A stretch of DNA of 64,000 bases, from the sequence record HM114315.1; one strand, 5' to 3'. The notes under the pieces were generated by a model. The model saw nothing but the letters and a program-made list of their open reading frames with translations. It searched no databases and was not told where the DNA came from. The DNA comes from Acinetobacter phage 133. Made by a program: the position numbers and the translations under genes. Shown here piece after piece: positions 2,308 to 36,382 of this stretch (position 1 is the first letter of the stretch; each line of letters begins with the position of its first letter).

Positions 2308-2751
2308 TCAATTGAATAGAACCCAATGTAATGGATTTGACTCCATAGGTTCAACAACTACCAATACTTCACCATCCCAGAAACGTACTTTATACTGAGG
2401 CTTAAGATCGCCAATACCACCTTCTGATAAAGGCCACCCATCAGTGGTGTCTAATGAGAACACAACTTCGACAATGCAAGGTTCCAATTTCAGCGCTTTA
2501 TCACGTTGTCGGGTAATGTTGGCAGTAGTCAAACAAATATCTGATTCCCGATCACGGGAGAATTCTGAAAAATTACGACCGAACTCGGTTATAACCCATA
2601 CCCATTTTGACCCCACTCGCTCTACTTCACCAGGCAATACTTTGAAGCCCATAATATCAAAAGGTACACCTTGCTTAAAAATATATCCTTCGAAAGTGCC
2701 GCATTCAATGCCAAAGGGTTTAAGTTCGCGATAAGGTAATTTCATTTTCAT
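2308..2751 (-). CDS. hypothetical protein
   Basis: 147-aa ORF in the co-directional gene array; no recognisable motif. Confidence 0.4.
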   Translation of the reverse strand: MKMKLPYRELKPFGIECGTFEGYIFKQGVPFDIMGFKVLPGEVERVGSKWVWVITEFGRNFSEFSRDRESDICLTTANITRQRDKALKLEPCIVEVVFSLDTTDGWPLSEGGIGDLKPQYKVRFWDGEVLVVVEPMESNPLHWVLFN

Positions 2752-4061: not shown

Positions 4062-4261
4062 TCAACTTGTTTGGGTTTCAAAATGGTTGATTTGCCAGTA
4101 CGCAAGTTTTTGGCCCCGATTTCAGCTGCGCACCCGTAACTGACTGAAGGCACATAACTCAGTTCTAGGTCAGTTGGGAATTGACCTTCACATAGCTCAA
4201 CAATTTTCACTCGACTTTTTGGATCTGTTTCAATTCGGATTGTACGTTTAAGCGTTAACAT
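4025..4261 (-). CDS. hypothetical small protein
   Basis: 78-aa ORF. Confidence 0.3.
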   Translation of the reverse strand: MLTLKRTIRIETDPKSRVKIVELCEGQFPTDLELSYVPSVSYGCAAEIGAKNLRTGKSTILKPKQVECLKAIPYTTVD

Positions 4262-5327: not shown

Positions 5328-5659
5328 TGCTCCTGTACAATATTCAAGTGTTTCAGTTTAAGATCCAAAAAGGAATCTCGTTGTACTTCGCCCGTAGAGA
5401 GGGCTTGCTGTTTACCATCGCGATTATACACAATTTTATATGTTACACCACGACCTTTAGAACGAATTTGAGGAAAAATCAAACATTGTCCTCGATCGCT
5501 AGCGATCATCATTTTTACAGATCGCGACACATACTCAGATTGGACTTTACCAGATAATGCATATTCGGGAACCTCATTACCATGGGCTGGACAAAATGCA
5601 CCGCCGATACCCAAAGCAAGAATAATACCAGTGCTGATAAGAAAACTACGAGGGCTCAC
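5318..5659 (-). CDS. hypothetical secreted/periplasmic protein
   Basis: N-terminal signal-peptide-like segment MSPRSFLISTGIILALGIGGAFCPAHG. Confidence 0.4.
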   Translation of the reverse strand: MSPRSFLISTGIILALGIGGAFCPAHGNEVPEYALSGKVQSEYVSRSVKMMIASDRGQCLIFPQIRSKGRGVTYKIVYNRDGKQQALSTGEVQRDSFLDLKLKHLNIVQEHCK

Positions 5660-5910
5660 ACAGATGCTCCCATTCCAAATAGCAATACCATAATTGCGAC
5701 TGCAATTGTCAACCCAGTAACAACAAGAAAGTTTTTAAAACTTGTGTTAAGCACGGCCATAATTAACGCTGCAAACCAACCCACAATAGTCCAACCAAGA
5801 CAAGTATTGATTAGAAAAATAATCATTGCTGGTGCAGCTTGGCCTTTCCAAGCAATAAAGGTTGGATAAAAATATACCAACACAAATAAAATACCGACAG
5901 TTAAAATCAT
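5656..5910 (-). CDS. small two-helix membrane protein, Imm-like by position
   Basis: 84 aa, almost entirely hydrophobic. Sits directly downstream of gene 43, where T4 has imm. Confidence 0.35.
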   Translation of the reverse strand: MILTVGILFVLVYFYPTFIAWKGQAAPAMIIFLINTCLGWTIVGWFAALIMAVLNTSFKNFLVVTGLTIAVAIMVLLFGMGASV

Positions 5911-5973
5911 AGTTAAATTCCATATGAATATGGCTCATTATAAACGAGCCATATTCAATTGTACAACTTTATT

Positions 5974-7152
5974 TTAGAAGAAATCAAACATATCTGCCAA
6001 TGATGCACGATGTTCATAATGAATATCACATGCTGTACATAAAGCTTGCAATGGTTTAATGAATGATTTGGTGAATAGAGCAGGGTAATCAATTGCATCA
6101 ATTACGTCTTGTCGAATTTCCCGGGGCAATTCTGTTCCAGACGGCCATGCGATCGATTCAGAGTCAAACATATTGCCAGGTTGAAGAGGGAGTATCATTA
6201 CTTTTTCACCTTCACGAATTCGGACCATGCCTGGGAATCCGTCCGCGATTCGGTGATAGGCTAATACTGCTTTGATGTGGCCTGGGCATCCTTTAATTGG
6301 CAACCCCTTCGAGTCACTATATTTGGCAATATTATTGGCAGACGAAACTGATGCAATAGTTTTATAGTTCAATTGACGATACTCTTTTTCGTACTTCAGG
6401 AAGTATTCGTGCAATGAACTTTCACCTTCAATAAGCATCAGTCGAATTGACTCTTTTAATGCTTTTTGTACAGATTTTGGTGTGCTTGATTTCTGAGTTT
6501 CAAGGCCCATGATCTTAAGTTTAGGCTCAACAAAACGAACCCCTTCCATATCCCACACACAAAGAGCGTATCGTTTTTTCGCGGTCCAGAATCCACCCAA
6601 CCCGTGAGAACCGATTGGAGGACAAGCAATAGCTTCTCGGTCCATGAACATTAAATGTTCTCGGTTATTCATGTACTCGCATAGCTCACGATATCCTTTG
6701 TCAATGACTGGTTCCATGTTGTTCTTGCCAAATTTGTCCAGGAAGTCAACCAGCTTAGTTGTGGTGTCAAATTTGTCCATACCGAGTTTATTGATCAATA
6801 GTTCAACGTTTACATAGATAGAATCCGTATCACAATAGAAAACATACTCAAAGTTTGTGGTACCACATAATTGATTGAGATACTCATTTACTTTCCGGGC
6901 AATCCACTGAATAGCTACACGACCAAAGGTTGTAATGGCCGTTGCATTGCGCAGATCATACATACGGAAGTGAATGTTGCCCAGTGCACCGTATAATGAA
7001 TTTAATAAAATTTTTCGGTTCTGCTGGTTTGTGTCGCATTTTATTTCGTATCCATTACATTCAGCCAAGATGCGTTTAAGCTCTTCGTCCGTACATGTTT
7101 CAAGATACGCAATCTCGTCTTCATTAAATTTAATGCCGTAGTTTAATTCCAT
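5974..7152 (-). CDS. 43B: DNA polymerase gp43, C-terminal segment (43B; palm/thumb with YCDTDS motif)
   Basis: Carries the PolB motif C (YCDTDSIYV) and matches the T4 gp43 C-terminal region. Start taken at MELNYGIKF, which has a GGAGA Shine-Dalgarno 5 nt upstream. The ORF track starts at 7179 with a non-ATG codon. Confidence 0.85.
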   Translation of the reverse strand: MELNYGIKFNEDEIAYLETCTDEELKRILAECNGYEIKCDTNQQNRKILLNSLYGALGNIHFRMYDLRNATAITTFGRVAIQWIARKVNEYLNQLCGTTNFEYVFYCDTDSIYVNVELLINKLGMDKFDTTTKLVDFLDKFGKNNMEPVIDKGYRELCEYMNNREHLMFMDREAIACPPIGSHGLGGFWTAKKRYALCVWDMEGVRFVEPKLKIMGLETQKSSTPKSVQKALKESIRLMLIEGESSLHEYFLKYEKEYRQLNYKTIASVSSANNIAKYSDSKGLPIKGCPGHIKAVLAYHRIADGFPGMVRIREGEKVMILPLQPGNMFDSESIAWPSGTELPREIRQDVIDAIDYPALFTKSFIKPLQALCTACDIHYEHRASLADMFDFF

Positions 7153-7170
7153 TATGTCTCCAAAAATAAA

Positions 7171-7190
7171 AAGGACCACTAAGGTCCTTA
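7171..7190 (-). terminator. intrinsic terminator / operator-like hairpin just upstream of the 43B Shine-Dalgarno
   Basis: AAGGACC-nnnn-GGTCCTT hairpin followed on the minus strand by UUUUUAUUUUU, then GGAGA and the 43B ATG. Confidence 0.55.
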
Positions 7191-7206
7191 ATTATATCAA
7201 ATATGA

Positions 7207-7512
7207 CTAAAGCATACGGGCCGGCATATAAGGTGTATTTTTAGCACCTTTTACAGGAACCATAATGCGATCTTCAGACAACATTGTTCTGCACTTTTTA
7301 CACATTGTAATAGTTTCAACTTCAAACATTCGAGACGTTTGAGCATTGCGTTTACTCGCTTGAGTAAAATATGCCTTATGGTTAAATCCCGTGTTTTCAT
7401 ATTTGCCAGTGTATACCCCACGAGTCATTGGATCATGCTCGCAACGAAGTTTAAGTACAATTAATAAACGTTGAATCATTTTCTGTAAAAATTTCATAAT
7501 AAATTCCTTCAT
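7207..7512 (-). CDS. hypothetical small protein with CxxH...CxxC (possible zinc ribbon)
   Basis: 101 aa with RCEHD...CKKC. Last gene of the insertion that splits gene 43. Confidence 0.3.
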   Translation of the reverse strand: MKEFIMKFLQKMIQRLLIVLKLRCEHDPMTRGVYTGKYENTGFNHKAYFTQASKRNAQTSRMFEVETITMCKKCRTMLSEDRIMVPVKGAKNTPYMPARML

Positions 7513-7583
7513 TGGTTTCGTTCATTGTATATTATATTATAGCTTAAGTACATCTATTTAAATTAACCCATCATTGGACACAA

Positions 7584-8321
7584 TCATAATTCCAATTTCC
7601 CGGCAAATTGGGCAATAGGTAGCCACTCTGTTTCTGATTCTTCATCATCTGCCCATGCAAATAATAATTGATCTACAGGACGCGGTGGTTGAGGGCTATG
7701 ACGGATTACATTGACCCATAGTTGCATAGATCCAGACGGCCCTTGCACAATTTCACTAATTGGATACCCTTGAAATAATTCTAAACCTTTATCATCCGTA
7801 ATATGGCGCACCATCACGCCAATTAAGGGATGAATAGGTTTCAAAGGCTTTCCCTCGGGTAAATCATCTAATTGGTACACAATGATGTCCAAATTCGGCG
7901 TTACTTCATTGATGATTTGTTCAATTACAGCCCAGTCACCACCTGCAATTCCAGCACCAATTTTTGGGATACCTACTTCAGGTCGACCTACTATAATGGA
8001 TGGTAAAATGAGGTCTAATTTTGTGAATAATGCGCGAATTGCGGTGTACAGATATTTAGGATCTGCTCGGCCTGGATTAAATTGTGTGTACCCGTTAACA
8101 ATTTTTCCATATGGTGTTTCGGCAAGCGTATATCCACCCCGTTTATCTCGACCATATTGGGTCAGCTTGTCAGCATCATACGCAACTGGAAATTGCTTTG
8201 CAATAGCCGCAGCGATACCAGCGCCCATAGTATGGAAGCAATTGCATCCATGCACAATAGCATCAAATTTACGCTCGCGGAAAGCGTCAAGTAAATCACC
8301 TTTTACGTATTGAGTAATCAT
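7584..8321 (-). CDS. macro-domain (ADP-ribose binding/hydrolase-like) protein with C-terminal extension
   Basis: VHGCNCFHTMGAGIAAAI resembles the macro N-terminal motif (NAAN..GGGV..AI). PKIGAGIAGGDW resembles the second glycine-rich macro motif. The ORF track extends to 8348; the start here is the internal Met MITQYV. Confidence 0.5.
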   Translation of the reverse strand: MITQYVKGDLLDAFRERKFDAIVHGCNCFHTMGAGIAAAIAKQFPVAYDADKLTQYGRDKRGGYTLAETPYGKIVNGYTQFNPGRADPKYLYTAIRALFTKLDLILPSIIVGRPEVGIPKIGAGIAGGDWAVIEQIINEVTPNLDIIVYQLDDLPEGKPLKPIHPLIGVMVRHITDDKGLELFQGYPISEIVQGPSGSMQLWVNVIRHSPQPPRPVDQLLFAWADDEESETEWLPIAQFAGKLEL

Positions 8322-8623
8322 TATTTCTCCTCCGAATAAATGATGCATTGCATGAAAGTATGATAGTCCAAATACACGGTGTCGAGTCCGTCATCACAGT
8401 CAGCCCAAGCAAAATTCAAATAACAATCATCAAATACTTTGCCATCGTTGGTGTAAATTTTCAATCGAGGTGACATATTAGTATCAAAATATGAACGGAC
8501 CTCAACAACATGGCCTGTGATTTCAGGATGAGTTTTATGTTGGTATATTACACCAATTAACGGGTGTAATATAGTAGAGGGCCAGTTAGTCGTACCCTCT
8601 AAAATAGGTAAATGTGGAATCAT
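8321..8623 (-). CDS. hypothetical protein
   Basis: 100-aa ORF inside the gene-43 insertion. Confidence 0.35.
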   Translation of the reverse strand: MIPHLPILEGTTNWPSTILHPLIGVIYQHKTHPEITGHVVEVRSYFDTNMSPRLKIYTNDGKVFDDCYLNFAWADCDDGLDTVYLDYHTFMQCIIYSEEK

Positions 8624-8904
8624 ATTTGCACTCCAAAGAAAGCAGTTAATACTTTAAACGGACGATTCAACGCCTGGTCAGTTAATAGACTATCGGTAGC
8701 CACCATGGTTACCAATTCAGGGCCGCCGTTTGGGCATTGAACATCAAGTGAAACTTTTAAATTACGTACAATATCATCAATTGTTCCACGGTGATTAGGC
8801 ATGGTATTCAACGCTTGATCAATAACCGGGTGTAATTCAACAACAAAACCATCTAGTCCAGGTTGGATAATCATTGGACCAACCATAATGTTAAACTGAT
8901 GCAT
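8620..8904 (-). CDS. hypothetical protein (start at internal Met MHQFNIMVGP)
   Basis: The N-terminal part of the tracked ORF 8620..9084 looks non-coding (R/L-rich). The C-terminal ~94 aa look protein-like. Confidence 0.3.
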   Translation of the reverse strand: MHQFNIMVGPMIIQPGLDGFVVELHPVIDQALNTMPNHRGTIDDIVRNLKVSLDVQCPNGGPELVTMVATDSLLTDQALNRPFKVLTAFFGVQI

Positions 8905-9115
8905 GTTCTTTCTCCGAATAGAAAGTATCAATTTTTTGCGTAACCTCATCCATTGATGCCGCGTCAAATGACGGATGATCAATAAGTGGGCAATACGCTT
9001 CCCAAGAAGTTTCAACCATACCACACCCACATTGGCATGAGCTAGCTGAAGAGGAGAGGTGATACTCGCGGTAAACGATTTCACCCTTTTCTACTGAAAT
9101 TGTAATCTGGCGCAT
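8891..9115 (-). CDS. hypothetical Cys-rich small protein
   Basis: 74 aa with the cluster CQCGCG...CPL. Confidence 0.3.
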   Translation of the reverse strand: MRQITISVEKGEIVYREYHLSSSASSCQCGCGMVETSWEAYCPLIDHPSFDAASMDEVTQKIDTFYSEKEHASV

Positions 9116-9129
9116 GTTAATCTCGCGTT

Positions 9130-9200
9130 TGTTGACATGGAAGAATATTAAACCAATAAAAATATTTTGTAAACCCTAAAACGAAAAAAGGTCCCGAAGG
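9130..9200. repeat. intergenic repeat copy A (aatattaaacc..ataaaaa..gtaaaccctaaaacgaaaaa plus hairpin)
   Basis: Shares a 45-nt consensus with the copies at 27100..27175 and 32225..32295. Confidence 0.6.
9183..9196 (-). terminator. intrinsic terminator embedded in repeat copy A
   Basis: GGTCC-cgaa-GGACC hairpin with an adjacent run (A on plus, U on minus), downstream of ORF 9211..9531. Confidence 0.5.
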
Positions 9201-9210
9201 ACCATAAACC

Positions 9211-9531
9211 CTAGTTGTACTCTTTCTCGTCTACGTAAAACTCGATATCATGCATAATCCCATCGACAGTAACAACACCGGTTTCAAAATTAACATCCTT
9301 GACAAGAAATTTTACACGCCATGGATCAATTGTCCATCCAAATGGAGCTTTGCGATACGGACAAACATAATGTGCATTTGTAATTGTTTTGATTCCATCT
9401 TTAGTATTGATTTGGATTCCAGGGGCTCCAACGAATTGAACTACCCAACGTTCAGAAATGGTGTTACGAATGAAATCGTTATCCGTTGTCAATTTAACTT
9501 TTGATGAATCGAAAGAACTAACTTTAGCCAT
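9211..9531 (-). CDS. hypothetical protein
   Basis: 106-aa ORF followed by an intrinsic terminator. Confidence 0.4.
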   Translation of the reverse strand: MAKVSSFDSSKVKLTTDNDFIRNTISERWVVQFVGAPGIQINTKDGIKTITNAHYVCPYRKAPFGWTIDPWRVKFLVKDVNFETGVVTVDGIMHDIEFYVDEKEYN

Positions 9532-9541
9532 ATCAGTTTAC

Positions 9542-9790
9542 TCATTTTGTTGCATGATTTGATAGAAACTCGTTACGAGCAGCGTTTTGCAAGTCGCGTA
9601 CGAATTGAGTTTTTTGATCTATATCATCCCAACGAACACCATATTGCAGATACCCTTTTTCATCCAGCATCTGGTTGATGCTGGCAATGATCTTTGCTGG
9701 CACTCGGACGCCATTATTAGGACCCAGTGAAAAACAACGGTTATTTTTTAAGGTGAAAATAAGACTAGGAAGCACGATAATTGCACGCAT
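9542..9790 (-). CDS. hypothetical protein (start adjusted to MRAIIV)
   Basis: ORF track 9542..9835; the internal Met avoids overlap with the upstream gene. Confidence 0.3.
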   Translation of the reverse strand: MRAIIVLPSLIFTLKNNRCFSLGPNNGVRVPAKIIASINQMLDEKGYLQYGVRWDDIDQKTQFVRDLQNAARNEFLSNHATK

Positions 9791-9791
9791 A

Positions 9792-10073
9792 TTATTTCTC
9801 CACAGAAGTGTCAACAGGACGAACAGAATCAACATAAACCAGGTTTGCAGTTAGTGCTTTCAGTTCAAGGTCTAAGTTAAAAATAGTAGTGTCATTAATT
9901 GGTTCACCGATGTAACGGTGTAAGGCCGATTCGATATTTGCAACAACTTGTTTATTTGCAAGACGGTCAGCATGGTGAATATCCATTTTAATTGGGCATC
10001 CAGCTTGTACTGTAATTTTTACCATGCCGTAATCAAGAACAATTGGTTGTGTAGCAGATTGGATCAATTTCAT
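9792..10073 (-). CDS. hypothetical protein, first gene of the insertion after 43A
   Basis: 93 aa; its start overlaps the 43A stop. Confidence 0.4.
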   Translation of the reverse strand: MKLIQSATQPIVLDYGMVKITVQAGCPIKMDIHHADRLANKQVVANIESALHRYIGEPINDTTIFNLDLELKALTANLVYVDSVRPVDTSVEK

Positions 10074-11602
10074 TTTTTACGTCTCGCAAGTATTGATTTA
10101 ATTACCTCGGCATTTTGTTCTGCCGTGATCATTTTTTTCTTCCATTCTTTACGCTGTACAAACATTTTAGTGGTTTCAATAGGAATGATTCCCTCTAAAA
10201 CTTTATCGTACATCATACCGTTTGGAGCACAACTAAATTCGGAGCTAGGTCTTGGAGCAGTCTTATCAATATACTGTTCCTGCGTACCGGGGCTAAACAT
10301 ACCACGAATTGTTTCGGGGCTAATATTGACCTGGCGAATAATGCTCGGGTACAAACTTGTTAAGTCAAAGCTCATCACATATTTTTGAAGACTTGGTGGA
10401 ATCTCTTTAACAAACGCACCAGGGAACTTCTGTTTAATGTGGCTTTGTGACTCAGGCAATACTACCTTGGTTTCTTTAAGCGAATTGAATAAAATCGCAT
10501 CCCATGTTTTTACCGGCGAAAGTACCGATCCAATGTTGATCTTAGCGTAATACGCCAAAGCAAGAGACAAGTCAATGAATCCGCGCTTTTTATCAATCAT
10601 CTGTACACAGTACACATCAATGATGTTATAGCTGATGTAACGTTGGTGGTTGGTCTCACGGAGTTTGTTAATAGGACCATCATACTCTAATTTTGAGACA
10701 TCTGTCTCCGCTTCAGAAATATAATCCAATGAATATGACGGTTGAGTCGTAAAGCCGAACTTTTTGTACAAGTCCATATAGTCAAGCACGTTAATTCCAG
10801 CAATGGTGAATAACTCGGCTTCATTATCATACTTATCCCGCATGACTTTTGAAGTTACACGACCAAAAGGTGACATACGCTTGACGAATGTCTGACCCAG
10901 CACATTCTTGATGCGGTTCATCACATATGGAATATCGAACTTGTCACAGTTCCAACCGGTCAACACCGCAGGAGGTTTCTGCTCAAATAAGTTGATATAC
11001 TCAAGCAATAATTCTCGTTCATTGTCAAATGGCATATAGACAACACGATCTAAAATGTGTTGAGGTACCATGTCCCCGCCTTCAGCTTCGGCCTTAGCCG
11101 CTATTTTCGCGCACCATTGATCCACAGTGGCCGATGTACTATGAGTTAAGTCAAATACATAGTAAGCATCATCAATTGAGTCATAATGTGTTATGGCATC
11201 AATCTCGTACACTGCAAGCATTGGTTCAGGGAAGTCAATACCGGTTACCTCGATGTCAAAATAAACAGTGCGGATTTTGGACTTATCGAATTCAACGTCG
11301 TCCTTGTAGATATCGCTGATATACGCCAGACGAAAGTCGTCCATGCCCATAATTTCAACGATGCCTTTTGTCTCGCGCATCCACTGTCGACAAGATGAAA
11401 TCCCATCAAACTTACGAGGTTTAGCATACTTTCCATAGATGTCTTTGTATTCAGACTCATCTTGGGTATGTACGAACATTGTTGGACCATAGTTAACCGA
11501 TCGAATTTGATCCTGTCCATCCACATCAATGTAACGCTCTAAAATTTCACCCCGATTGATGTCAACGTTAATATAAAATTCAGGTTTCATCAATTTCTCC
11601 AA
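10070..11602 (-). CDS. 43A: DNA polymerase gp43, N-terminal segment (43A; 3'-5' exonuclease plus N-terminal palm)
   Basis: 510 aa. Exo I motif FDIEVTG. Matches the T4 gp43 N-terminal half. Stops before the motif-C region, which is encoded separately. Confidence 0.85.
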   Translation of the reverse strand: MEKLMKPEFYINVDINRGEILERYIDVDGQDQIRSVNYGPTMFVHTQDESEYKDIYGKYAKPRKFDGISSCRQWMRETKGIVEIMGMDDFRLAYISDIYKDDVEFDKSKIRTVYFDIEVTGIDFPEPMLAVYEIDAITHYDSIDDAYYVFDLTHSTSATVDQWCAKIAAKAEAEGGDMVPQHILDRVVYMPFDNERELLLEYINLFEQKPPAVLTGWNCDKFDIPYVMNRIKNVLGQTFVKRMSPFGRVTSKVMRDKYDNEAELFTIAGINVLDYMDLYKKFGFTTQPSYSLDYISEAETDVSKLEYDGPINKLRETNHQRYISYNIIDVYCVQMIDKKRGFIDLSLALAYYAKINIGSVLSPVKTWDAILFNSLKETKVVLPESQSHIKQKFPGAFVKEIPPSLQKYVMSFDLTSLYPSIIRQVNISPETIRGMFSPGTQEQYIDKTAPRPSSEFSCAPNGMMYDKVLEGIIPIETTKMFVQRKEWKKKMITAEQNAEVIKSILARRKK

Positions 11603-11607
11603 AAAGC

Positions 11608-11642
11608 ATCAGAACTAATTTTAACATTTAGCCCTGATGCAA
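11608..11642 (-). promoter_or_regulatory. hairpin plus U-tract immediately upstream of the 43A Shine-Dalgarno
   Basis: Minus strand: GCATCAG-22nt-CTGATGC, then UUUUUGGAGAAAUUG-AUG. Confidence 0.4.
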
Positions 11643-11645: not shown

Positions 11646-12002
11646 TCATTTGCCAATTGTATACTTTGGAACTAATTTCCATTCTGCTTTTTGAGAGTGT
11701 TTAATAATACGGAAGTTATTGGTTGGTACCAAGTCAGTCTGGGTTTCAATCTGGCATAAATCCCAAGACTCAAGCATTGTTGCGATAGATAAAGTACGTA
11801 CTTTATCTTCTTCGGTAATATCAGTTGGTTTACCATCAAGCTTCAAGAGGTCTTTGAAGTGTGCAATATAATAGCGGCCTTGCTTTTGCAAAATGTGGCA
11901 ACTTTGGTACAATACTTTGTCACGGCTATTGGCAATGCCCATGCGAGTTAGGGTTTCTTTAATCTGTAAGAATGCACCTTGATGTGGAGTAATTTCAATC
12001 AT
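11646..12002 (-). CDS. regA: RegA translational repressor
   Basis: 118 aa; near-identical stretches to T4 RegA (MIEIT...LTRMGIAN..KVLYQSCHILQK...EWKLVPKYTIG). Confidence 0.85.
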   Translation of the reverse strand: MIEITPHQGAFLQIKETLTRMGIANSRDKVLYQSCHILQKQGRYYIAHFKDLLKLDGKPTDITEEDKVRTLSIATMLESWDLCQIETQTDLVPTNNFRIIKHSQKAEWKLVPKYTIGK

Positions 12003-12562
12003 ACTAATTTCCTTAACTCTTTTTGAGTTTTTACATTTTTGGTGATGGTTTTTAAAAACGCATCAGTTACATAAGAAGAACAACGTTTCAGGTCAGACTC
12101 AAGACGGCCATTCTTTGTAAGAATTGTTTTGTACATTTTGGCATCGAGTTCATTGATATCATATAACAACATCAATAAGCGAATGACAAAGGTTTCTTTA
12201 ACGTCTTCATCAAGCTTGGCTTTAGATGCATATCGCTTGCCATGAGGAACTGCGTGCAGAAGATATCTAAAATGATCCTGGTCGCGCAATGTCTTGATAC
12301 CCAGGTTTGCCATATAGGCAGGATACAATGCGTCTGTATGGAGAGATAAGAGCTCAGTAATTAAGAACTTTGAATATGAGTCATCAACCATACGATGCTG
12401 CTTAAGATGATTAATCGCATTTAAATTTGCGAATAACTCAGACTCAGCAGATTCTTTATAGGAATCTGCTAGCTCTTTAACTTTTGCCCAATCTTTATCT
12501 TCCCATGCTATTTGATGCTCATTTAATTCGGGAGCTTGGATAAGATCAGTCAATAAGAACAT
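11999..12562 (-). CDS. 62: clamp loader small subunit gp62
   Basis: 187 aa, the same length as T4 gp62. Sits between 44 and regA. Confidence 0.75.
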   Translation of the reverse strand: MFLLTDLIQAPELNEHQIAWEDKDWAKVKELADSYKESAESELFANLNAINHLKQHRMVDDSYSKFLITELLSLHTDALYPAYMANLGIKTLRDQDHFRYLLHAVPHGKRYASKAKLDEDVKETFVIRLLMLLYDINELDAKMYKTILTKNGRLESDLKRCSSYVTDAFLKTITKNVKTQKELRKLV

Positions 12563-12563: not shown

Positions 12564-13523
12564 TTAAATCCATTTCAATGTAAAGGCAAGACGAGCAACC
12601 AACATGCGCATATGTACTTTGTGGGAACCTGCAATACCGTAGAATTGGTTATTTTCGCCCATGATTTCAATTAATTGAACTTTGGATTGATCATCCACTA
12701 AAGGATAAATTTTGTCCATCAGTTGTTCAATTACGCTTGCATAGGAACCGACGTACTTATCGACCATAGGGAAAATCATTTTTACATCTTTTGTACGAAT
12801 TACGTGCATAAGATCTGATAAATCACGTTGTTCCAATACCAGGGTTAAAATACCCGAATCAATCACTTTATTCGAGCTATACAAATCCAGCAAGTTGGTA
12901 ACTTTACGGAAATCAGGGAAGTTCTGTAATACCAGAGCACCCAATACTTTAGGCTCCAGGATTTCGATCCCTTCGTTCGCACAAATTAATTGAGCGCGTT
13001 TAACCATTTGCACCATCATGGATTTGCGATCGGTTTCAGACGGAGTACCAAACTTAATTACTCGAGAACGAGAACGTAATGGCTTAACGATACCTTCCAA
13101 GTTATTCGCAGTAATGATAACTGAACAGTTATCACCGTATGCTTCCATGAAAGTACGCATATGAAGTTGTGCATCTTGTAAACCGTTACGGTCAAATTCA
13201 TCAATGACAATTACTTTTGGTCGACCATCATTTGAAAGAGAAGACGCAAACGTGGTTAACGGACCTCGCACAAAATCAATTTTACAATCAGACCCATTTA
13301 CAAACAACATATGGGCGTCAACACCATTGCATAATGCTCGTGCCACTGTTGTTTTGCCAGTACCAGGCTGGTCTGAATGTAGAATAAGATGCGGAATATT
13401 TCCAGATGCCACAATTGCTTTAAGAATGGCCTTATCCGCAGCAGGTAAAATGCACTCGTCAATATTATCAGGACGGTACTTCAATTCGAACATATGTTGG
13501 GTTTTATCAATTGAAAGTGTCAT
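12564..13523 (-). CDS. 44: clamp loader large subunit gp44 (AAA+)
   Basis: 319 aa. Walker A GTGKTT. Extensive identity to T4 gp44 (KYRP..IDECILPA, SNCSIIITANN). Confidence 0.9.
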   Translation of the reverse strand: MTLSIDKTQHMFELKYRPDNIDECILPAADKAILKAIVASGNIPHLILHSDQPGTGKTTVARALCNGVDAHMLFVNGSDCKIDFVRGPLTTFASSLSNDGRPKVIVIDEFDRNGLQDAQLHMRTFMEAYGDNCSVIITANNLEGIVKPLRSRSRVIKFGTPSETDRKSMMVQMVKRAQLICANEGIEILEPKVLGALVLQNFPDFRKVTNLLDLYSSNKVIDSGILTLVLEQRDLSDLMHVIRTKDVKMIFPMVDKYVGSYASVIEQLMDKIYPLVDDQSKVQLIEIMGENNQFYGIAGSHKVHMRMLVARLAFTLKWI

Positions 13524-13532
13524 TTTTTCACC

Positions 13533-14222
13533 TTAGAAACTGTGGCTTGAAGTTTTTTCTACAGAGATAATGTGCAATGCGCTTGCACTTTCGAAGCATG
13601 ATGCAATCTGCTTATCTTTAGCAAAGAACTTCACTTTATAATCATCCACTGGAATTTTCATGTTCTGCATATGAAGTACAAACTTAAATGGGGTGTTTAC
13701 TGGGCATGGCCCCATGTCAAGCGATACTAAAGGATTTGCTAAGTCTGCATCAGTAATGCGGTTGTAGCCGTCCATTACAATGCGATCGTCTTTCTTAGAA
13801 ACGGCGATCAAGTCAACAGCCAAGGCACGGGACACTCGTGTAAATTGTGACCAGTCATCGGATTTTAATTCAAACTCAATGGTCCCAGGTGGGAATACTG
13901 CAGTGCGAGCAGGAGTTAGAATTTTTTCAACATCAATTGTCGGCCAATAAATTACAGAACGCTCGCCTCGAATCGCTAAGCTGCCGTCAACCACCGTCAC
14001 ATTGGCATCTGCATCGGCAAGTTGCAAAATTGATAAGAAACCTGCTAAATCATGAATCGCGCATTCAATATCAATATTATCTTCAATTGTCGCATGGGCA
14101 TAGTTCGTAGTTGCACGGTTTGCAGTGCGGACCAGGTTGCCCGGGGTCAAATGAATTGATGGGTTAATAGTTGCAAAGTTTTTAAGCACAGCAATAGTAT
14201 TTTTACTAAATTTCATATTCAC
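13533..14222 (-). CDS. 45: sliding clamp gp45
   Basis: 229 aa. N-terminus M.FSKNTIAVLKNFATIN matches T4 gp45. Confidence 0.9.
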   Translation of the reverse strand: MNMKFSKNTIAVLKNFATINPSIHLTPGNLVRTANRATTNYAHATIEDNIDIECAIHDLAGFLSILQLADADANVTVVDGSLAIRGERSVIYWPTIDVEKILTPARTAVFPPGTIEFELKSDDWSQFTRVSRALAVDLIAVSKKDDRIVMDGYNRITDADLANPLVSLDMGPCPVNTPFKFVLHMQNMKIPVDDYKVKFFAKDKQIASCFESASALHIISVEKTSSHSF

Positions 14223-14223
14223 C

Positions 14224-14589
14224 TCAAGGTTGTTGAACAGATAATTGAATTACTTCAAGAGCAGCATCAATAAGCATTTGATCTTGTTGATCGCAATATT
14301 CATCCGGTAAACGGTAGAAACCATTTACTCGAATCATTTTAACACCGTTTGCCAAAGCGTCTTCACGATGTTGACGCATTTTGCTGATCCAAAGTTCAAG
14401 GACTTCTTTATCCAACGATTTGTACAATGCTCGACGTGATTCCAAAGGCATGGCCTGGTACATTTCACGGAGTGTATCAGGAGTTTGAAGGACCCAAGCT
14501 TTACGGATTTTTGTATCTGCAGAATCTGAAATTTTGCCTTGAATATCTTGAACTGTAATAGTATTCATAACTACTCCACTAATAACCAT
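14224..14589 (-). CDS. RpbA-like RNA polymerase-binding protein (by position)
   Basis: 121-aa ORF directly upstream of gene 45, as T4 rpbA is. Confidence 0.4.
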   Translation of the reverse strand: MVISGVVMNTITVQDIQGKISDSADTKIRKAWVLQTPDTLREMYQAMPLESRRALYKSLDKEVLELWISKMRQHREDALANGVKMIRVNGFYRLPDEYCDQQDQMLIDAALEVIQLSVQQP

Positions 14590-14750
14590 AATTCATGTCG
14601 ACCCGATCGGATTCGGGCCAACTCATCTTCATTTTTGAATCGTTCGCGTAACATTGCATCAGTTACGCGAAACTCTTCATTATTGTAGAGGCAAATCAAT
14701 GTATATTGCTTAACCTCTGGGTAACATTCTAATTCATTTATTTCAAGCAT
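14571..14750 (-). CDS. hypothetical small protein
   Basis: Small ORF between gene 46 and the rpbA-like gene, in the position of T4 46.1/45.2. Confidence 0.3.
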   Translation of the reverse strand: MLEINELECYPEVKQYTLICLYNNEEFRVTDAMLRERFKNEDELARIRSGRHELWLLVE

Positions 14751-16446
14751 TTGAAATGGTTTCCAACACACTAAACCGGCCGACTTTACGCATTTTTAAG
14801 TGTTGCCCATAGTCATCCGGGTTGTGATCACGGTGAGAAATAATAAAGCAATTTAAATCTGGAATAGAATTTAAGATCTGCTGAATTGCTTTAACCCCTT
14901 CGGCGTCCGTTGCCCCATCAGCAACTTCGTCCAAAATCAATGTTGATATATTAACACCTGTTACCGCCGAAGCAATCTTACGCCAAGTAAAAAGTAATGC
15001 AATGTCAATACGAGCTTTTTCGCCCTGACTGAACGAAGCATAACTAAAGTCTTCTCGACCTCGAGACTTGATGGATTCCCCAAATTCCTGGTTTAACGTG
15101 AATACATAATCAGCACCCATAATCTGCAAGTATTCATTGATGTATTTATTGAACAGAGGAACGTATTTCTGTACAATTGCGCCTTTAATACCAGAGTCCT
15201 TGAGCATTTCGGTAATACATCCGCGGCGGTACTTATCCATGACCATATCGGCCTTGTTTGTGTACTCGGCGTTTAGATCATCTTGTAAAGCCTGGATCTG
15301 CTGACTGTTATCAACATATTCTTTACTGGCTTCTTCAATCAGCGCTTTGATCTTCTTGGCCTGCCCTACCGCAGCCACAGCAGCGCTCTTAAATTGAGCC
15401 TGTTCGCTCTGTAAGGCGCGTATTTGATTTACGGCTGATAAGTATAAGCGTTGATCGTCTTGAGCTGAATTAAGCGACGCAGTGAGCGTATGGGCTGCTG
15501 TATCTTCAGCATCGCGGCGAGCTTTAATTTGGCCCACCAATTGAGGATTGCTCAACGGTTGAATGCAGGTCGGACACACCCCACCAGTATTGTATAGGTG
15601 TAGCACTTTATCATATTGATGACATTTTTGATCATGGACCGCCAAGTCGCGTTGGATGCGACCGATTTCCGTCGTCAAATCTGGAGGCGAAATGATTGCA
15701 TTAATTTTTTCCGAATGGGCAATAGCCTTATCCTTATTGGCGTTCACAATAGCAACTTGTTCATCGTACATTTTGTTTAAACGTATCAAGTTATCACCCG
15801 ATAAACGTTTCTGCTTTTCATCATGGTCCTGGTGGGTCTTGATTTGAATATTCAGGTGCTGAATTCGTTGGTCGCATAAAGATTGAGCAGTGTTTAGTTC
15901 CCGAATTGCAGTCTTATTCAACTTATCCATATCTGCAAGGACTGTGATTTCCAATAGGTCTTCAACTAGCTTGCGGCGGTTTGGTGCAGTCAATGCCATA
16001 AATGGAGTATAACCCGCCGTACCTAATACAATGATCTGTTTGAATGAGTTATAGTTCAATCCGATCAATTGTTCAAAGTATTCTTGGAAGTCTTTAGCCG
16101 AGGCTGACTCATCTAATGGAACACCATCACGTTTGATTTCAAAGATTGTGGGTTTCTGACCACGACGAACTTCAAATAATGAACCGTTAAAACGGATATC
16201 CACCTCAACCAGTTGGTCTTTTTTGTTCATTGAGTTAATAAGTTGACCTTTCTTAATGTCACGGAATGGTCGTCCAAAGATGCCAAATGTTAAAGCTTCA
16301 ATAAAGGTGGATTTACCGTCACCGTTTTTCCCTGTGACCAGGGACTTATGGCAACGATTCAAAAAGATTTCAATTGGCTGTTGTCCAACCGATAAGGTGT
16401 TTTTATATTTCACCCGTAAGATTTCAAGTTTTTTCATGCTGTACAC
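14743..16446 (-). CDS. 46: recombination endonuclease subunit gp46 (Rad50/SbcC-like ATPase)
   Basis: 567 aa. Walker A GKNGDGKST. Coiled-coil middle region. Matches T4 gp46. Confidence 0.85.
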   Translation of the reverse strand: MYSMKKLEILRVKYKNTLSVGQQPIEIFLNRCHKSLVTGKNGDGKSTFIEALTFGIFGRPFRDIKKGQLINSMNKKDQLVEVDIRFNGSLFEVRRGQKPTIFEIKRDGVPLDESASAKDFQEYFEQLIGLNYNSFKQIIVLGTAGYTPFMALTAPNRRKLVEDLLEITVLADMDKLNKTAIRELNTAQSLCDQRIQHLNIQIKTHQDHDEKQKRLSGDNLIRLNKMYDEQVAIVNANKDKAIAHSEKINAIISPPDLTTEIGRIQRDLAVHDQKCHQYDKVLHLYNTGGVCPTCIQPLSNPQLVGQIKARRDAEDTAAHTLTASLNSAQDDQRLYLSAVNQIRALQSEQAQFKSAAVAAVGQAKKIKALIEEASKEYVDNSQQIQALQDDLNAEYTNKADMVMDKYRRGCITEMLKDSGIKGAIVQKYVPLFNKYINEYLQIMGADYVFTLNQEFGESIKSRGREDFSYASFSQGEKARIDIALLFTWRKIASAVTGVNISTLILDEVADGATDAEGVKAIQQILNSIPDLNCFIISHRDHNPDDYGQHLKMRKVGRFSVLETISNA

Positions 16447-17459: not shown

Positions 17460-17717
17460 TTAACTGCCTCGTGAATGGTCCAAAAGAAAATCATTACTCG
17501 TCAGACCGCGTTTGCATAAAGTTGTTACTACTGTAACGCCCCCGGTCGAAGCAATAAAGGCATTACCAACATAAACTTTGACGCTTTTTGTACAGCGTTT
17601 ACTCCGTGTAAATCGAGTCTTTAATTCATACCGGTACAATTTGTAATTGCCCATGTGTAAACCATAAAATAGTGGTGGTAAAGGTTTAAAAGGTTTAGTT
17701 TTCATATCATACTCCAA
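17460..17717 (-). CDS. hypothetical small protein
   Basis: 85-aa ORF immediately downstream of gene 47. Confidence 0.35.
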   Translation of the reverse strand: MEYDMKTKPFKPLPPLFYGLHMGNYKLYRYELKTRFTRSKRCTKSVKVYVGNAFIASTGGVTVVTTLCKRGLTSNDFLLDHSRGS

Positions 17718-17750
17718 AAAAACTTACTTATATTATCATGCTTAAATGAA

Positions 17751-17770
17751 AAAAGGAGCCGAGGCTCCTT
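17751..17770 (-). terminator. intrinsic terminator
   Basis: AAGGAGCC-gag-GCTCCTT hairpin with a flanking A/T run, between 17773..18120 and 17460..17717. Confidence 0.5.
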
Positions 17771-17772
17771 AA

Positions 17773-18120
17773 TTATTTTACTTCTTGTTTCATTTTGACC
17801 ATTTCTTCACGGGCCAACAGAATCAATGCGGCATTATTACGATTCCACATTTCATCAGCTTCAGCAGTAGATAATGGTTTCTGACGATAGATACGACGCA
17901 GTTTTTGAATCGCGTATACATACCCGAACTTATTGCCTTCGATCATTGACTTTTCGGCCCAGGCCTTCAGGCGAGTAATTTCACGGCGGTTCTTTTTCAA
18001 GATTTTCTTGACTCGCTGATCAACTTCCTTTTTAACGTACTCTTCTTGTGCTTTGGCCAAAATATCATCATCATGATTTGGATCAAGGTCAACTTGGGAT
18101 AGATCAGTCGGTAGATTCAT
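17773..18120 (-). CDS. hypothetical protein (55.x position)
   Basis: The ORF track runs to 18168. Start taken at MNLPTDL, which overlaps the gp55 stop by about 17 nt. Confidence 0.35.
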   Translation of the reverse strand: MNLPTDLSQVDLDPNHDDDILAKAQEEYVKKEVDQRVKKILKKNRREITRLKAWAEKSMIEGNKFGYVYAIQKLRRIYRQKPLSTAEADEMWNRNNAALILLAREEMVKMKQEVK

Positions 18121-26859: not shown

Positions 26860-27089
26860 TGCGGATTACCTTTAATAATGGTCAATACTACACGCTGTTC
26901 TTCACCATTTAAAAATGCATATTGACATACACCCGTTTGATCAACAGTTTCAATGATCGAAGCTGGGATACCTTTTGCATTGAAGGTCGCCACATGATTA
27001 GTGAATGCAAAATCAAACTGCTCGGTTGACAATGTAGATTGCCCTACAATTTGGGTTACGATAATATAATTAACCATTTTATTTCTCAC
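26856..27089 (-). CDS. hypothetical protein
   Basis: 77-aa ORF. Confidence 0.35.
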   Translation of the reverse strand: MRNKMVNYIIVTQIVGQSTLSTEQFDFAFTNHVATFNAKGIPASIIETVDQTGVCQYAFLNGEEQRVVLTIIKGNPQ

Positions 27090-27099
27090 GTTGGTTGGA

Positions 27100-27175
27100 A
27101 TAAGAGAATATTAAACCGATAGAAATAAAAAGTAAACCCTAAAACGAAAAAAGAGAGCATATGCTCTCTTTTCTT
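27100..27175. repeat. intergenic repeat copy B
   Basis: gaatattaaaccgatagaaataaaaagtaaaccctaaaacgaaaaaa plus hairpin. Confidence 0.6.
27151..27172. terminator. bidirectional intrinsic terminator embedded in repeat copy B
   Basis: AGAGAGCA-ta-TGCTCTCT hairpin flanked by an A-run and TTTTCTT. Confidence 0.5.
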
Positions 27176-32224: not shown

Positions 32225-32295
32225 TTTAGGACAATATTAAACCAATAAAAATAAAAACGTAAAACCCTAAAACGAAAAACGGCCCGAAGGACCTT
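32225..32295. repeat. intergenic repeat copy C
   Basis: caatattaaaccaataaaaataaaaacgtaaaaccctaaaacgaaaaa plus an imperfect GGCCCgaaGGACC hairpin. Confidence 0.6.
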
Positions 32296-33860: not shown

Positions 33861-33937
33861 GGCGGCGCCGTGAAGGACTCGAACCCTCGATGGCGGATTT
33901 GGAATCCGCAGTGTTTCCAACTACACTAACGACCCTT
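33861..33937 (-). tRNA. tRNA-Trp(CCA)-like, possibly degenerate
   Basis: D-arm GTGT/ACAC. Anticodon arm GCGGA-TTCCAAA-TCCGC. T-arm GAGGG-TTCGAGT-CCTTC. The acceptor stem has a G-G mismatch and an irregular 3' tail. Confidence 0.3.
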
Positions 33938-33939
33938 AA

Positions 33940-34626
33940 TTATTTAAACATTTTTCGACCTTTAATCCAACCTTTCGGAATAGGGTCATTTTTATTTATT
34001 CGAGTAGATTTTCGCTCTTCTAAAGAGTGAATCCACATTTTACCAAACTGTGAATTTTTTTCGCCTTTCTGATGTTCTATTTCTGTAAAGGTTTTCTTGA
34101 CTTTTTCAATCGATTCAGGCTTATGTCTTCGTCCCGACCACGGGTGACCGTTTTTATCGAAAGCATCTTTTATTGAATTTGAAACAAGTTCTCTATACCC
34201 TGGGTTAGTCCACATTTTTATAGCAGATAAGCTCATATTAGAAATAAACTTTTCGTTATAGCCTGGTATTTCCAACCTTTTCCGCTGCCGTGCATTTCCA
34301 GCAAGACGTGCTCTTTTACTCATTTCTTGAGCGTCTTTATTCAGATGATCCCAACCGCCTTGTCCACCCAATTTAATATTGTAAGTATCAGAACGATCAA
34401 TAAAATCCTGGTCAACAATTAAAGATTCAATTTCAAACATCTCTTCTTCAGAATCGTGCATCATCAAAATATCTTTCTTGAAATTTTCGATACCGTGTTT
34501 TGAAATAGATCTTTTTAAAATTTTACCTGAGCCCATGTAGCCGTCTTCAAGATTTGCGGTCTTATGAACTCCGACATAAATTTTACCATTTATCAAGTTG
34601 GTAATCTTGTACGTGTAAAAATGCAT
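33940..34626 (-). CDS. GIY-YIG homing endonuclease (full length, Seg-like)
   Basis: HFYTYKITNLINGKIYVGVH...YMGSG..NIKLGGQGG. 228 aa with a basic C-terminal DNA-binding-like region. Sits next to the tRNA cluster, as T4 segB does. Confidence 0.65.
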   Translation of the reverse strand: MHFYTYKITNLINGKIYVGVHKTANLEDGYMGSGKILKRSISKHGIENFKKDILMMHDSEEEMFEIESLIVDQDFIDRSDTYNIKLGGQGGWDHLNKDAQEMSKRARLAGNARQRKRLEIPGYNEKFISNMSLSAIKMWTNPGYRELVSNSIKDAFDKNGHPWSGRRHKPESIEKVKKTFTEIEHQKGEKNSQFGKMWIHSLEERKSTRINKNDPIPKGWIKGRKMFK

Positions 34627-34680
34627 GAGTATCCTCGAATTGTAACGTTACAAGGATATTTATACTCATGCAATAATTTG

Positions 34681-34755
34681 GTGGTAATTGGTGGACTCGA
34701 ACCACCGACCTACGGATTATGATTCCGCTGCTCTACCTACTGAGCTAAACTACCG
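34681..34755 (-). tRNA. tRNA with CAT anticodon (Met or Ile2), copy 1
   Basis: Folded by hand. Acceptor GGTAGTT/AATTACC. D-arm GCTC..GAGC. Anticodon arm GCGGA-ATCATAA-TCCGT. T-arm GGTGG-TTCGAGT-CCACC. Confidence 0.65.
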
Positions 34756-34759
34756 GAAG

Positions 34760-34831
34760 CGAGGACACGATTTGAACGTGCGCGTAAGAGGTTATGAGCC
34801 TCTCATTCTACCAGGCTGAAGTTACCTCGCA
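34760..34831 (-). tRNA. tRNA with CAT anticodon, copy 2
   Basis: Anticodon arm AGAGG-CTCATAA-CCTCT. T-arm GCACG-TTCAAAT-CGTGT. Acceptor GCGAGG/CCTCGC. Confidence 0.55.
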
Positions 34832-34926
34832 ATAATTTGGACGGGTTTTTGAATTTAAGTACGGACTGATTGGTCATGCTAAACTTAAATCCGTGGATTT
34901 CCTGCAATCCACATGCCATGTGCGCA

Positions 34927-35002
34927 ATTGGCAATTTGGCAGACCCGACGGGTTTCGATCCCGCTACCTCCCGCGTGACAGGCGGGTGCTCTTCCGATTG
35001 AG
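34927..35002 (-). tRNA. tRNA-Asp(GTC)
   Basis: Anticodon arm CCCGC-CTGTCAC-GCGGG. D-arm GCTC..GAGC. T-arm GCGGG-ATCGAAA-CCCGT. CCA encoded. Confidence 0.65.
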
Positions 35003-35018
35003 CTACGAATCTATAATT

Positions 35019-35231
35019 TTACATCAAACATAAACTTGTAGCAACCCATTGATTTTGACGGGTCACATGATCAGTAGCGCTTGTTTCATTTGATACTCTA
35101 TGCCCAATTGGACTGGAAATATCTGGTTTTGATGAACGGTGCCCAGTTAAAATACCGGGTATTTTAACTGTTCGATTTGGATAACGAACTAGGCTAAAAT
35201 CTTTCTTGAGCTCGGATTCATATAAACTCAT
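35019..35231 (-). CDS. hypothetical small ORF within the tRNA cluster
   Basis: 70-aa ORF between tRNA-Asp and tRNA-Gln; coding status uncertain. Confidence 0.2.
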   Translation of the reverse strand: MSLYESELKKDFSLVRYPNRTVKIPGILTGHRSSKPDISSPIGHRVSNETSATDHVTRQNQWVATSLCLM

Positions 35232-35249
35232 CTTATACTCACTTAAAAA

Positions 35250-35324
35250 ATGGAAGTCGCAAAAGGAATCGAACCTTTACTAACAGAGTCAAATTCTGTG
35301 GTGCTACCGTTACACCATGCGACA
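35250..35324 (-). tRNA. tRNA-Gln(TTG)
   Basis: Anticodon arm ACAGA-ATTTGAC-TCTGT. T-arm AAAGG-TTCGATT-CCTTT. Weak 1:72 pair. CCA encoded. Confidence 0.65.
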
Positions 35325-35417
35325 ATTATTAGTTTTTGATCTGTTGAACTATAACAACAGCTCGATGGTAAGTTCATCGAGTCTCAAGAAGTGTATTTCT
35401 ACACTTAGACTAAAATT

Positions 35418-35494
35418 GGTCTCCCATGTTGGATTTGAACCAACGACATCTTCTTTCCAAAAGAAGTAGGCTACCAGACTGCCCTAATGAGAGA
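35418..35494 (-). tRNA. tRNA-Pro(TGG)
   Basis: Acceptor CTCTCAT/ATGGGAG. D-arm GGGC..GCCT. Anticodon arm CTTCT-TTTGGAA-AGAAG. T-arm GTTGG-TTCAAAT-CCAAC. CCA encoded. Confidence 0.7.
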
Positions 35495-35499
35495 TAAAA

Positions 35500-35820: not shown

Positions 35821-35823
35821 AAT

Positions 35824-36299: not shown

Positions 36300-36305
36300 A
36301 TAATC

Positions 36306-36381: not shown

Positions 36382-36382
36382 A

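Follow-up and report, generated by a model that had tools for sequence, protein, structure and literature searches.

Terminator-, promoter- and ribosome-binding-site-like signals packed into the leaders of both halves of split gene 43 in Acinetobacter phage 133

Gene 43 of Acinetobacter phage 133 is split into two halves, 43A and 43B, each of which is preceded in record HM114315.1 by a hairpin, a U-tract, a Shine-Dalgarno sequence (SD) and an AUG, all on the minus strand of the 64,000-nucleotide stretch that was analyzed (the window). Taken together, the sequence features make it somewhat probable that both leaders are T4-style stop-and-restart modules in which terminator, promoter and ribosome-binding site (RBS) are packed into gaps of ~55 nt. 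An original prediction had described this layout in front of both halves, and every element of it was recovered. Its leading proposal, that gp43 represses translation of both halves as in T4, gained no positive support: the window has no weak hairpin with a UAAC loop of the T4 type, and the 43B loops vary. Its alternative, a terminator before 43B that isolates the DNA inserted between the halves, combined with a separate 43B promoter, is the one that we favor, given canonical terminator geometry in four lineages and a TGCTT(T/A)A-N11-TATAAT footprint upstream.

The 43B leader

The elements of the 43B leader are as follows.

7208..7214, minus strand: MotA-box-like TGCTTTA, read from the sequence, overlapping the stop codon of open reading frame (ORF) 7207..7497
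7191..7199, minus strand: TGa+TATAAT extended −10 element, 11 nt 3' of the MotA-like box and ending 1 nt 5' of the hairpin
7171..7189, minus strand: 43B-leader hairpin AAGGACC-uuagu-GGUCCUU, 7 bp, −10.1 kcal/mol
7162..7170, minus strand: U-tract UUUAUUUUU (DNA TTTATTTTT), abutting the 3' end of the stem
7157..7161, minus strand: 43B SD, GGAGA, 4 nt 5' of ATG 7152..7150

The stop codon of ORF 7207..7497 is TAG at 7209..7207. The hairpin consists of a 5' arm (7189..7183), the loop TTAGT (7182..7178) and the 3' arm GGTCCTT (7177..7171), and CATA (7156..7153) separates GGAGA from the ATG. A U-tract had been predicted and is present, although the UUUUUAUUUUU originally given for it includes the last two U's of the stem. 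The geometry is that of a terminator: a 7-bp stem with four G-C pairs and a 5-nt loop, 17 nt past a stop codon, followed by a U-tract of intrinsic-terminator type that is U/A-rich in all four lineages.

These lineages, represented by the window and by the metagenomic contigs L022, L024 and L025, share TGCTT(T/A)A, 11 variable nt, TATAAT, a 7-bp hairpin, a U/A-rich tract of 9–11 nt, GGAG, 4–5 nt and AUG, with a TATAAT-to-hairpin distance of 1 nt except in L025, where it is 10 nt. For conservation tests, the independent lineages numbered three for the 43B hairpin and two for the 43A hairpin. Pairs in the 43B stem were tabulated by script, as MAFFT misaligned the L025 hairpin, and all seven form in every lineage. 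The stem reads AAGGACC/GGUCCUU in the window and L022 and AAGGUCC/GGGCCUU in L024, where one A-U pair is now U-G; in L025 it is GGGUCAA/UUGACCC, a wholly unlike sequence that still makes seven pairs. The loops differ by lineage (UUAGU, UUCG, UUAG).

Upstream of the hairpin, TGCTT.A and ATATAAT are invariant columns across the four lineages, and the 11-nt spacer between them is variable. The ORF upstream of 43B has other C-terminal residues and another frame in L024 and encodes an unrelated protein in L025. An invariant box and −10 over a variable spacer and a changing upstream ORF form, on this alignment, a promoter-type footprint. T4 middle promoters combine a MotA box, (a/t)3TGCTTtA, with a TAtaaT −10 at a distance of 12±1 bp, and about half of them have TGn (PMC2988021). 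The corresponding sequence before 43B, gtaTGCTTTA, 11 nt (ending in TGa) and TATAAT, conforms to this pattern. The window covers a part of a T4-like genome in which motA and asiA would not be expected. Acinetobacter phage 133 has been reported to encode both of them (PMC2988021).

We also rejected a bidirectional terminator, since the tail on the plus strand, AATTATAT, is not rich in U and no plus-strand ORF of the gene call lies nearer than one of 64 aa, more than 11 kb distant.

The 43A leader

The 43A leader is built from the same kinds of element, with the −10-like motif in the loop.

11606..11640, minus strand: 43A-leader hairpin, 13-bp stem including two G-U pairs, 9-nt loop AUGUUAAAA (DNA ATGTTAAAA), −15.9 kcal/mol
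11618..11626, minus strand: TGtTAAAAT, an extended −10-like motif in the loop, whose final T opens the 3' arm
11601..11605, minus strand: U5 tract between hairpin and SD (U4–5 in relatives, with extra A-U pairs counted into the stem)
11596..11600, minus strand: 43A SD, GGAGA, 5 nt (AATTG) 5' of ATG 11590..11588

The regA stop codon, TGA at 11648..11646, lies 5 nt 5' of the hairpin, in which 11640..11628 pairs with 11618..11606. The predicted GCATCAG/CTGATGC pairing, UUUUU and GGAG are all there, but the helix really extends to 13 bp and the ATG is 5 nt from the SD, not adjacent to it.

Between the window and the clade whose gp43A is 96% identical, 11 of the 26 stem bases differ and all 13 pairs are held: the compensatory changes are double-sided at three pairs and one-sided at five, and no pair is lost. 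When the partners were slid by 1–3 columns as a control, pairing was only 29–42%. The loop and its three closing pairs (15 nt) are unchanged, against a divergence of 28–41% at synonymous sites (P ~0.007), and TGtTAAAAT makes up nine of these 15 invariant bases. L031 has a different, weak A/U-rich hairpin that ends 7 nt 5' of GGAG, and keeps TAAAAT 21 nt 5' of the AUG. Fold z-scores against dinucleotide shuffles were −2.9 for the 43B leader and −2.4 for the 43A leader. Kept as structures in relatives, both leader hairpins are under selection. As a terminator, the 43A structure is suitably placed, but its loop is 9 nt long and its U5 (U4–5 in relatives) is marginal.

When metagenomes were scanned for the invariant 43A-loop 16-mer, there were at least 120 matches, all of them chance A/T-rich sequence. 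None adjoined a GGAG-ATG polymerase start, and the single match in a GGAG-ATG context (L137) is unrelated. A 15-codon mini-ORF runs from an AUG in the 43A loop (11580..11627, minus strand) and overlaps, in another frame, the start of 43A; it was set aside as a leader peptide, having 12 codons in L022 and being absent from L031.

Proposed termination and restart at the two leaders

In the arrangement that we propose, the hairpin and U-tract would end, or at least cap, transcripts from the upstream unit. For 43B the upstream unit belongs to the insert, whose first ORF overlaps the 43A stop codon and which contains signals of its own after its third ORF.

About 9140..9203, minus strand: insert terminator hairpin GGTCCTTCGGGACC+T6 (9203..9190, UUCG type), then an early-type promoter TTTACA-17-TAATAT (9173..9145)

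The five ORFs at the 43B end of the insert have the look of an early unit heading straight into 43B, and a terminator in front of 43B would therefore have an obvious job. The early promoter at 9173..9145 would drive these distal ORFs, the transcripts of which would reach the canonical intrinsic terminator at 7189..7162, and transcription would restart from the conserved MotA-box/TGn/TATAAT promoter that ends 1 nt 5' of the hairpin. Starts 5–7 nt past the hexamers would lie inside the 5' arm at 43B (window, L022 and L024), because the promoter ends 1 nt before the hairpin, or inside the 3' arm at 43A; transcripts that begin within a hairpin would therefore lack it. RNA from the 43B promoter would be hairpin-free, escape termination and offer an open U-rich leader with GGAGA. 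43B would thereby be uncoupled from the early insert unit and have its own timing. At 43A, the 13-bp hairpin may be a compressed counterpart of the hairpin that follows regA in T4 plus the T4 promoter P43, and RNA from the −10 in the loop (TGtTAAAAT) would start in the 3' arm, without the hairpin.

Several observations weigh against this arrangement. At 43B the promoter is 5' of the terminator, which is the reverse of the usual order; sites 9203, 17770, 27165 and 32293 and Acinetobacter phage Ac42 show the usual order, terminator then promoter. In L025 the hairpin begins 10 nt past TATAAT and is wholly downstream of the predicted start, so that RNA from that promoter would carry the whole hairpin. 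The MotA-box/−10 pattern shows no significant enrichment in the window (4 observed versus 3.5 expected), so that the middle-promoter call depends on the four-lineage footprint. At 43A, no good −35 was found upstream of TAAAAT, the U-tract is short (4–5 U) behind a 9-nt loop, and RNAs that bind protein likewise show an invariant loop on a covarying stem. To these must be added the rarity of a U-run joined to GGAG, a combination that marks both halves.

Comparison with the T4 regA–43 region

In T4, the gap between regA and gene 43 reads, in order, stop codon, AAGGGGCttcgGCCCCTT, ATTT-GGAG, TATAAT, 8 nt, AGCCU-AAUAACUC-GGGCU, 7 nt, AAGGA, 6 nt and AUG. The first hairpin is a strong UUCG hairpin in the terminator position (−12.1 kcal/mol), and the second, the operator, is weak (−5.2 kcal/mol), with 18 nt, a 5-bp stem and an 8-nt loop containing UAAC. 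The T4 middle promoter P43 has been mapped, with its start at 29933 (PMC2988021, Table 1); this start is ~4 nt 5' of the operator hairpin. T4 gp43 binds the hairpin and a sequence overlapping the RBS of its own mRNA, the operator being a small hairpin with a UAAC loop (UAAA in RB49) and sequence that reaches the RBS (PMC3014915).

Like T4, the window has a stable hairpin right after the regA stop, then a U-rich stretch and GGAG (AAGGGGCttcgGCCCCTT-ATTT-GGAG in T4, 13-bp hairpin-TTTTT-GGAGA in the window), with a −10 element for a gene 43 promoter inside the same short region. Unlike T4, in which ~40 further nt hold TATAAT, the P43 start and an operator 7 nt 5' of AAGGA, the window has no second hairpin, and the gap has no room for one; its −10-like element is in the loop of the first hairpin, and the GGAG after that hairpin is the SD. 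The 43A hairpin matches the first hairpin of T4 in position, strength and tail (a U-run and then GGAG), and not the T4 operator.

An operator of the T4/RB69/RB49 type (16–18 nt, a 4–5-bp stem and an 8-nt UAAC or UAAA loop) was not found at 43A or 43B. The 43A loop does hold UAAA, but inside A/U-rich sequence. The reach to the RBS is similar in geometry only, the hairpin being 5 nt from GGAGA at 43A and 9 nt from it at 43B. The predicted −10s lie in the loop (43A) and 1 nt 5' of the stem (43B), so that the predicted starts are inside the hairpins, except in L025.

Possible translational repression by gp43 or RegA

These comparisons bear on the idea of an autogenous operator, in which DNA-free gp43A/gp43B would bind the hairpin and the U-rich strand up to the SD in one or both leaders, block ribosomes and keep the halves in step. 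We consider this improbable. The precedent of T4 gp43, which recognizes a hairpin and an RBS-overlapping sequence, speaks for it, as does the UAAA in the invariant loop on the covarying 43A stem, given that UAAA is the RB49 loop motif (PMC3014915). The hairpin is 5–9 nt from the SD in both leaders, the 43B leader of L025 (MotA box-N11-TATAAT-N10-hairpin-N10-GGAG) resembles the P43/operator/SD layout of T4, a U-run with GGAG is nearly limited to the two halves, and in Aeromonas phage 44RR2.8t (44RR) a hairpin stands 7 nt 5' of the 43B SD. However, the T4 operator is weak (−5.2 kcal/mol) and separate from the terminator hairpin, whereas the window has only strong hairpins in the terminator position (−10 and −16 kcal/mol). 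Loop sequence is not conserved at 43B, and no loop or stem motif is common to both leaders. Predicted starts fall inside the hairpins in three of the four 43B lineages and in the 43A clade. Moreover, L033 is leaderless, and in Ac42, Acj61, ZZ1 and L034 the hairpin is 35–60 nt from the SD or missing. Some relatives of T4 have themselves been reported not to autoregulate gp43 (PMC3014915).

Repression of 43A by RegA, not gp43, through the A/U-rich AAAUUGAUG at its start, with the hairpin incidental, appears very improbable. RegA recognizes A/U-rich, unstructured stretches at the AUG, such as AAAUUAUGAUU of gene 44 and aaAAUUGUUAUGUAA obtained by SELEX (PMC3014915). 43A has GAGAAAUUGAUGAAA, L022 has AAAUUAAUG, and AAAUU within 3 nt of the start occurs in only five of 118 genes, among them 43A (window 11588..11596, minus strand) and regA itself (12000..12010). 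Yet this is a short A/T-rich motif that is absent from 43B (ACAUAAUGG), which leaves the shared layout unexplained, and RegA binding is silent on the hairpins.

Promoter-like elements nested in hairpins

The stop-and-restart arrangement gains a parallel downstream of 43B, where a −10 element again lies within a hairpin.

5925..5957, minus strand: 12-bp hairpin between 43B and imm, with GTTTATAAT in the loop

A −35-like hexamer, TTGTAC, stands 18 nt upstream; the hairpin is identical in L022. In the corresponding gap of L024 the design is retained with an unrelated stem sequence and no U-tract. The nested −10 design thus recurs in the 43B–imm gap of the window, in L024 with another stem, and in the 43A–43B spacer of 44RR. 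Placing a −10 in or against a hairpin looks like a way of fitting stop and restart signals into ~50 nt.

Nesting of this kind is also known from the T4 genes e, soc, 49 and I-TevI, in which a promoter is nested in DNA encoding part of an RNA structure, and long and short transcripts differ in structure (PMC3014915). The window differs from the gene e type in two respects: there the helix contains the SD and/or AUG and the nested promoter is late (TATAAATA), whereas here the core helix leaves out the SD and the nested −10 hexamers are of the sigma-70 type.

By analogy, the hairpins might not be mainly terminators but gates that depend on transcript origin, with read-through RNA masking the initiation region and RNA from the nested promoter being translated. 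We regard this as unlikely, though conceivable. The T4 promoters concerned lie in DNA encoding the 5' strand of the inhibitory structure (PMC3014915), and in the cases at hand a −10 is in the loop (43A leader, 43B–imm gap, 44RR spacer) or, at 43B, directly 5' of the hairpin. In partition-function folds, the predicted probability that the SD is unpaired was lower in the long than in the short RNA for six of seven leaders (0.03 versus 0.72 for the window 43A leader and 0.01 versus 0.49 for the L022 43B leader). L025 was the opposite (0.33 long versus 0.05 short), the long-range partners of the SD differ by lineage, and 160-nt folds are noisy. The core hairpins exclude the SD and AUG, unlike in the T4 cases, and the strong U-tract after the 43B stem is left unexplained. 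Masking of the SD in long RNAs is possible as a secondary effect only.

The hairpins could instead serve in end-protection or processing, shielding the upstream message from 3' exonucleases or, where transcribed whole (L025), acting as 5' stabilizers of the downstream one, with GGAG perhaps a cleavage point of the RegB type; this too seems quite improbable. Stable hairpins of the UUCG type do occur in T4 intercistronic regions, including the one after regA, and also in L024 and at window positions 9203 and 32293. The hairpins of the 43B–imm gap and of the 44RR spacer have no U-tract, which implies that a non-terminator role exists for this class, and GGAG is the RegB core motif (PMC3014915). 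On the other hand, end-protection alone would not call for the complete U-tract that 43B has in every lineage, and each of the two sites matches the RegB consensus GGAGRAYARAA at only three of the seven post-GGAG positions (counted against PMC3014915).

Rarity of the layout

How unusual the two leaders are was gauged across the window. Intergenic sites with a hairpin and T-tract on the gene strand number five in the 64 kb, including 43B, which alone abuts an SD. At least four U's directly 5' of GGAG occur in three of 118 genes: 43B, 43A and ORF 17460..17705. On the other hand, a hairpin at least as stable as −13 kcal/mol is carried by six of the 11 early-region gaps of 40–100 nt, and a hairpin 5' of any gene with a gap is therefore unremarkable here. 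The third gene with a U-run, ORF 17460..17705 (81 aa, upstream of gene 47), is preceded by a hairpin AAGGAGCCTCGGCTCCTT+T6, a promoter-like stretch GATAATAT and U7+GGAG (17705..17773, minus strand), in the order terminator, promoter, SD.

In a more novel reading, both junctions are matched sites for one RNA-binding factor that would co-repress both cistrons and hold the halves at 1:1, most attractively the assembled gp43A/gp43B polymerase, to which a junction of duplex and single strand would look like a primer-template. We give this little credence. Apart from the U-run and GGAG, the 43A and 43B leaders have no motif, loop or stem in common. Such a matched pair would amount to a T4-like autoregulatory circuit duplicated onto the second half after the split, with recognition unlike that of the UAAC-loop operator.

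Split gene 43 in other phages

The nearest annotated relatives of the window are the Acinetobacter T4-like phages Ac42, Acj61 and ZZ1 (Twarogvirinae), with 60–65% amino acid identity per half; gp43B is 62% identical to that of Ac42. These phages have the same split and multi-ORF inserts of 1.9–4 kb, and the ORF that immediately precedes 43B is homologous between Ac42 and the window. They also have terminator hairpins and TATAAT or TATACAAT promoter-like motifs before 43A and, in Ac42, before 43B. They differ in having a promoter region of 35–60 nt between terminator and SD, so that the hairpin is not adjacent to the SD; before 43B of Ac42, ~55 nt of promoter-like sequence separates the terminator from the SD. 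In ZZ1, 43B is preceded by no hairpin, and in both Acj61 and ZZ1 an additional ORF lies between regA and 43A. A hairpin and T-run after regA, or after a small ORF inserted there, was found in Ac42, Acj61, ZZ1, L033, L034 and 44RR.

The split gene 43 of 44RR2.8t, with its intercistronic untranslated sequence, was reportedly described by Petrov, Ratnayaka and Karam in 2010 (cited in PMC2988022). In the record of this phage (NC_005135, L156) the split point is similar, 43A and 43B having 498 and 391 aa. Its regA–43A gap (4219..4261) also resembles that of the window: a UUCG hairpin TGGCCttcgGGCCA, TTTTT, caaa and AGGA stand directly 5' of 43A, with no second, operator-like hairpin. The 49-nt spacer between 43A and 43B (2673..2721) forms an 8-bp G+C-rich hairpin, GGGGCTAT-gttata-ATAGCCCC (−15.4 kcal/mol), with TGtTATAAT nested in it, 7 nt 5' of the 43B SD. 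This spacer is ORF-free and only 49 nt long, unlike the insert of the window, in which 2.9 kb hold eight ORFs, a terminator and an early promoter. The tail of its hairpin is A-rich, not U-rich, and the leader elements of 44RR and the window have no sequence similarity.

In L033 (6920..7171 and 9690..10001), a further relative with split gene 43, each half overlaps the stop codon of a small ORF 5' of it and is leaderless, which suggests that 43A and 43B may be translationally coupled to those ORFs. The same contig has AAAGGACCcgaaGGTCCTTT-ttcatt-GGAGA-aaatt-ATG in front of an 83-aa non-polymerase ORF. Across these genomes, the hairpin–SD layout appears neither polymerase-specific nor universal for split gene 43.

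In L034, whose gp43A is 64% identical to that of the window, two ORFs of ~300 aa lie ~750 nt apart 3' of 43A (12956..15512). Upstream of the second, the sequence resembles the region of the polymerase YGALG/YYDLRNA motif, and the insert of this contig holds a Pyr_excise-like ORF. An intron or an additional split may interrupt the C-terminal polymerase half of L034 once more.

Genomic context and searches

The two leaders lie in a T4-type replication cluster on the minus strand of the window, with the gene order 45-44-62-regA-43 as in T4.

12564..13523, minus strand: gene 44
11999..12562, minus strand: gene 62
11646..12002, minus strand: regA, translational repressor (Pfam Translat_reg recorded for the L022 homologue)
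10070..11590, minus strand: 43A, 506 aa, N-terminal half with the exonuclease and part of the polymerase
7207..10073, minus strand: insert between the halves, eight small ORFs
5974..7152, minus strand: 43B, 392 aa, C-terminal half of the PolB polymerase
5656..5910, minus strand: imm

Among the insert ORFs, 7584..8321 (245 aa) has a Macro-domain match just under the Pfam cut-off (E = 7e-4); L022 and L023 keep this ORF, and L024 and L025 lack it. Pfam gave no match to the other seven, and no homing endonuclease was seen in them. The hairpin, T-run and CGTTTTAGGGTTTAC-N17-TAATATTC in the insert form a cassette of which the minus strand has at least three copies (9140..9203, ~27085..27165 and ~32235..32293). 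Their terminator stems are unlike, the promoter part is common, and the copy in the insert would split it into two transcription units.

The closer relatives found by protein search were metagenomic contigs, with 95% (L022, L023), 84% (L024) and 76% (L025) identity in gp43B and 96% (L022, L026–L030) and 77% (L031) in gp43A. No single record in an INPHARED near-identity DNA search covered more than 11% of the 6.2-kb region, and an IMG/VR scan with gp43B yielded nothing closer than a best match of 58% identity. Rfam at gathering thresholds identified 15 tRNAs only, with no match in either 43 leader. These tRNA genes are clustered in the early region (33864..37815, minus strand).

Significance

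A split polymerase needs its halves to be made together in matched amounts, and the leaders are where this coordination must be set. If the stop-and-restart arrangement is correct, coordination would be achieved with ordinary T4 tools, a terminator shielding 43B and a dedicated promoter restarting transcription, with overlapping signals. The two leaders would then offer a testable case of a gene that survived being split by foreign DNA, and a compact natural promoter-in-hairpin design that recurs in the 43B–imm gap and the 44RR spacer. They also warn against assuming the T4 gp43 operator in relatives from layout alone; of the two T4 hairpins, only the terminator appears to have a counterpart here. 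The signals themselves are of known kinds, and we would rate their compact overlap and the clean case of covariation at 43A as of modest interest.

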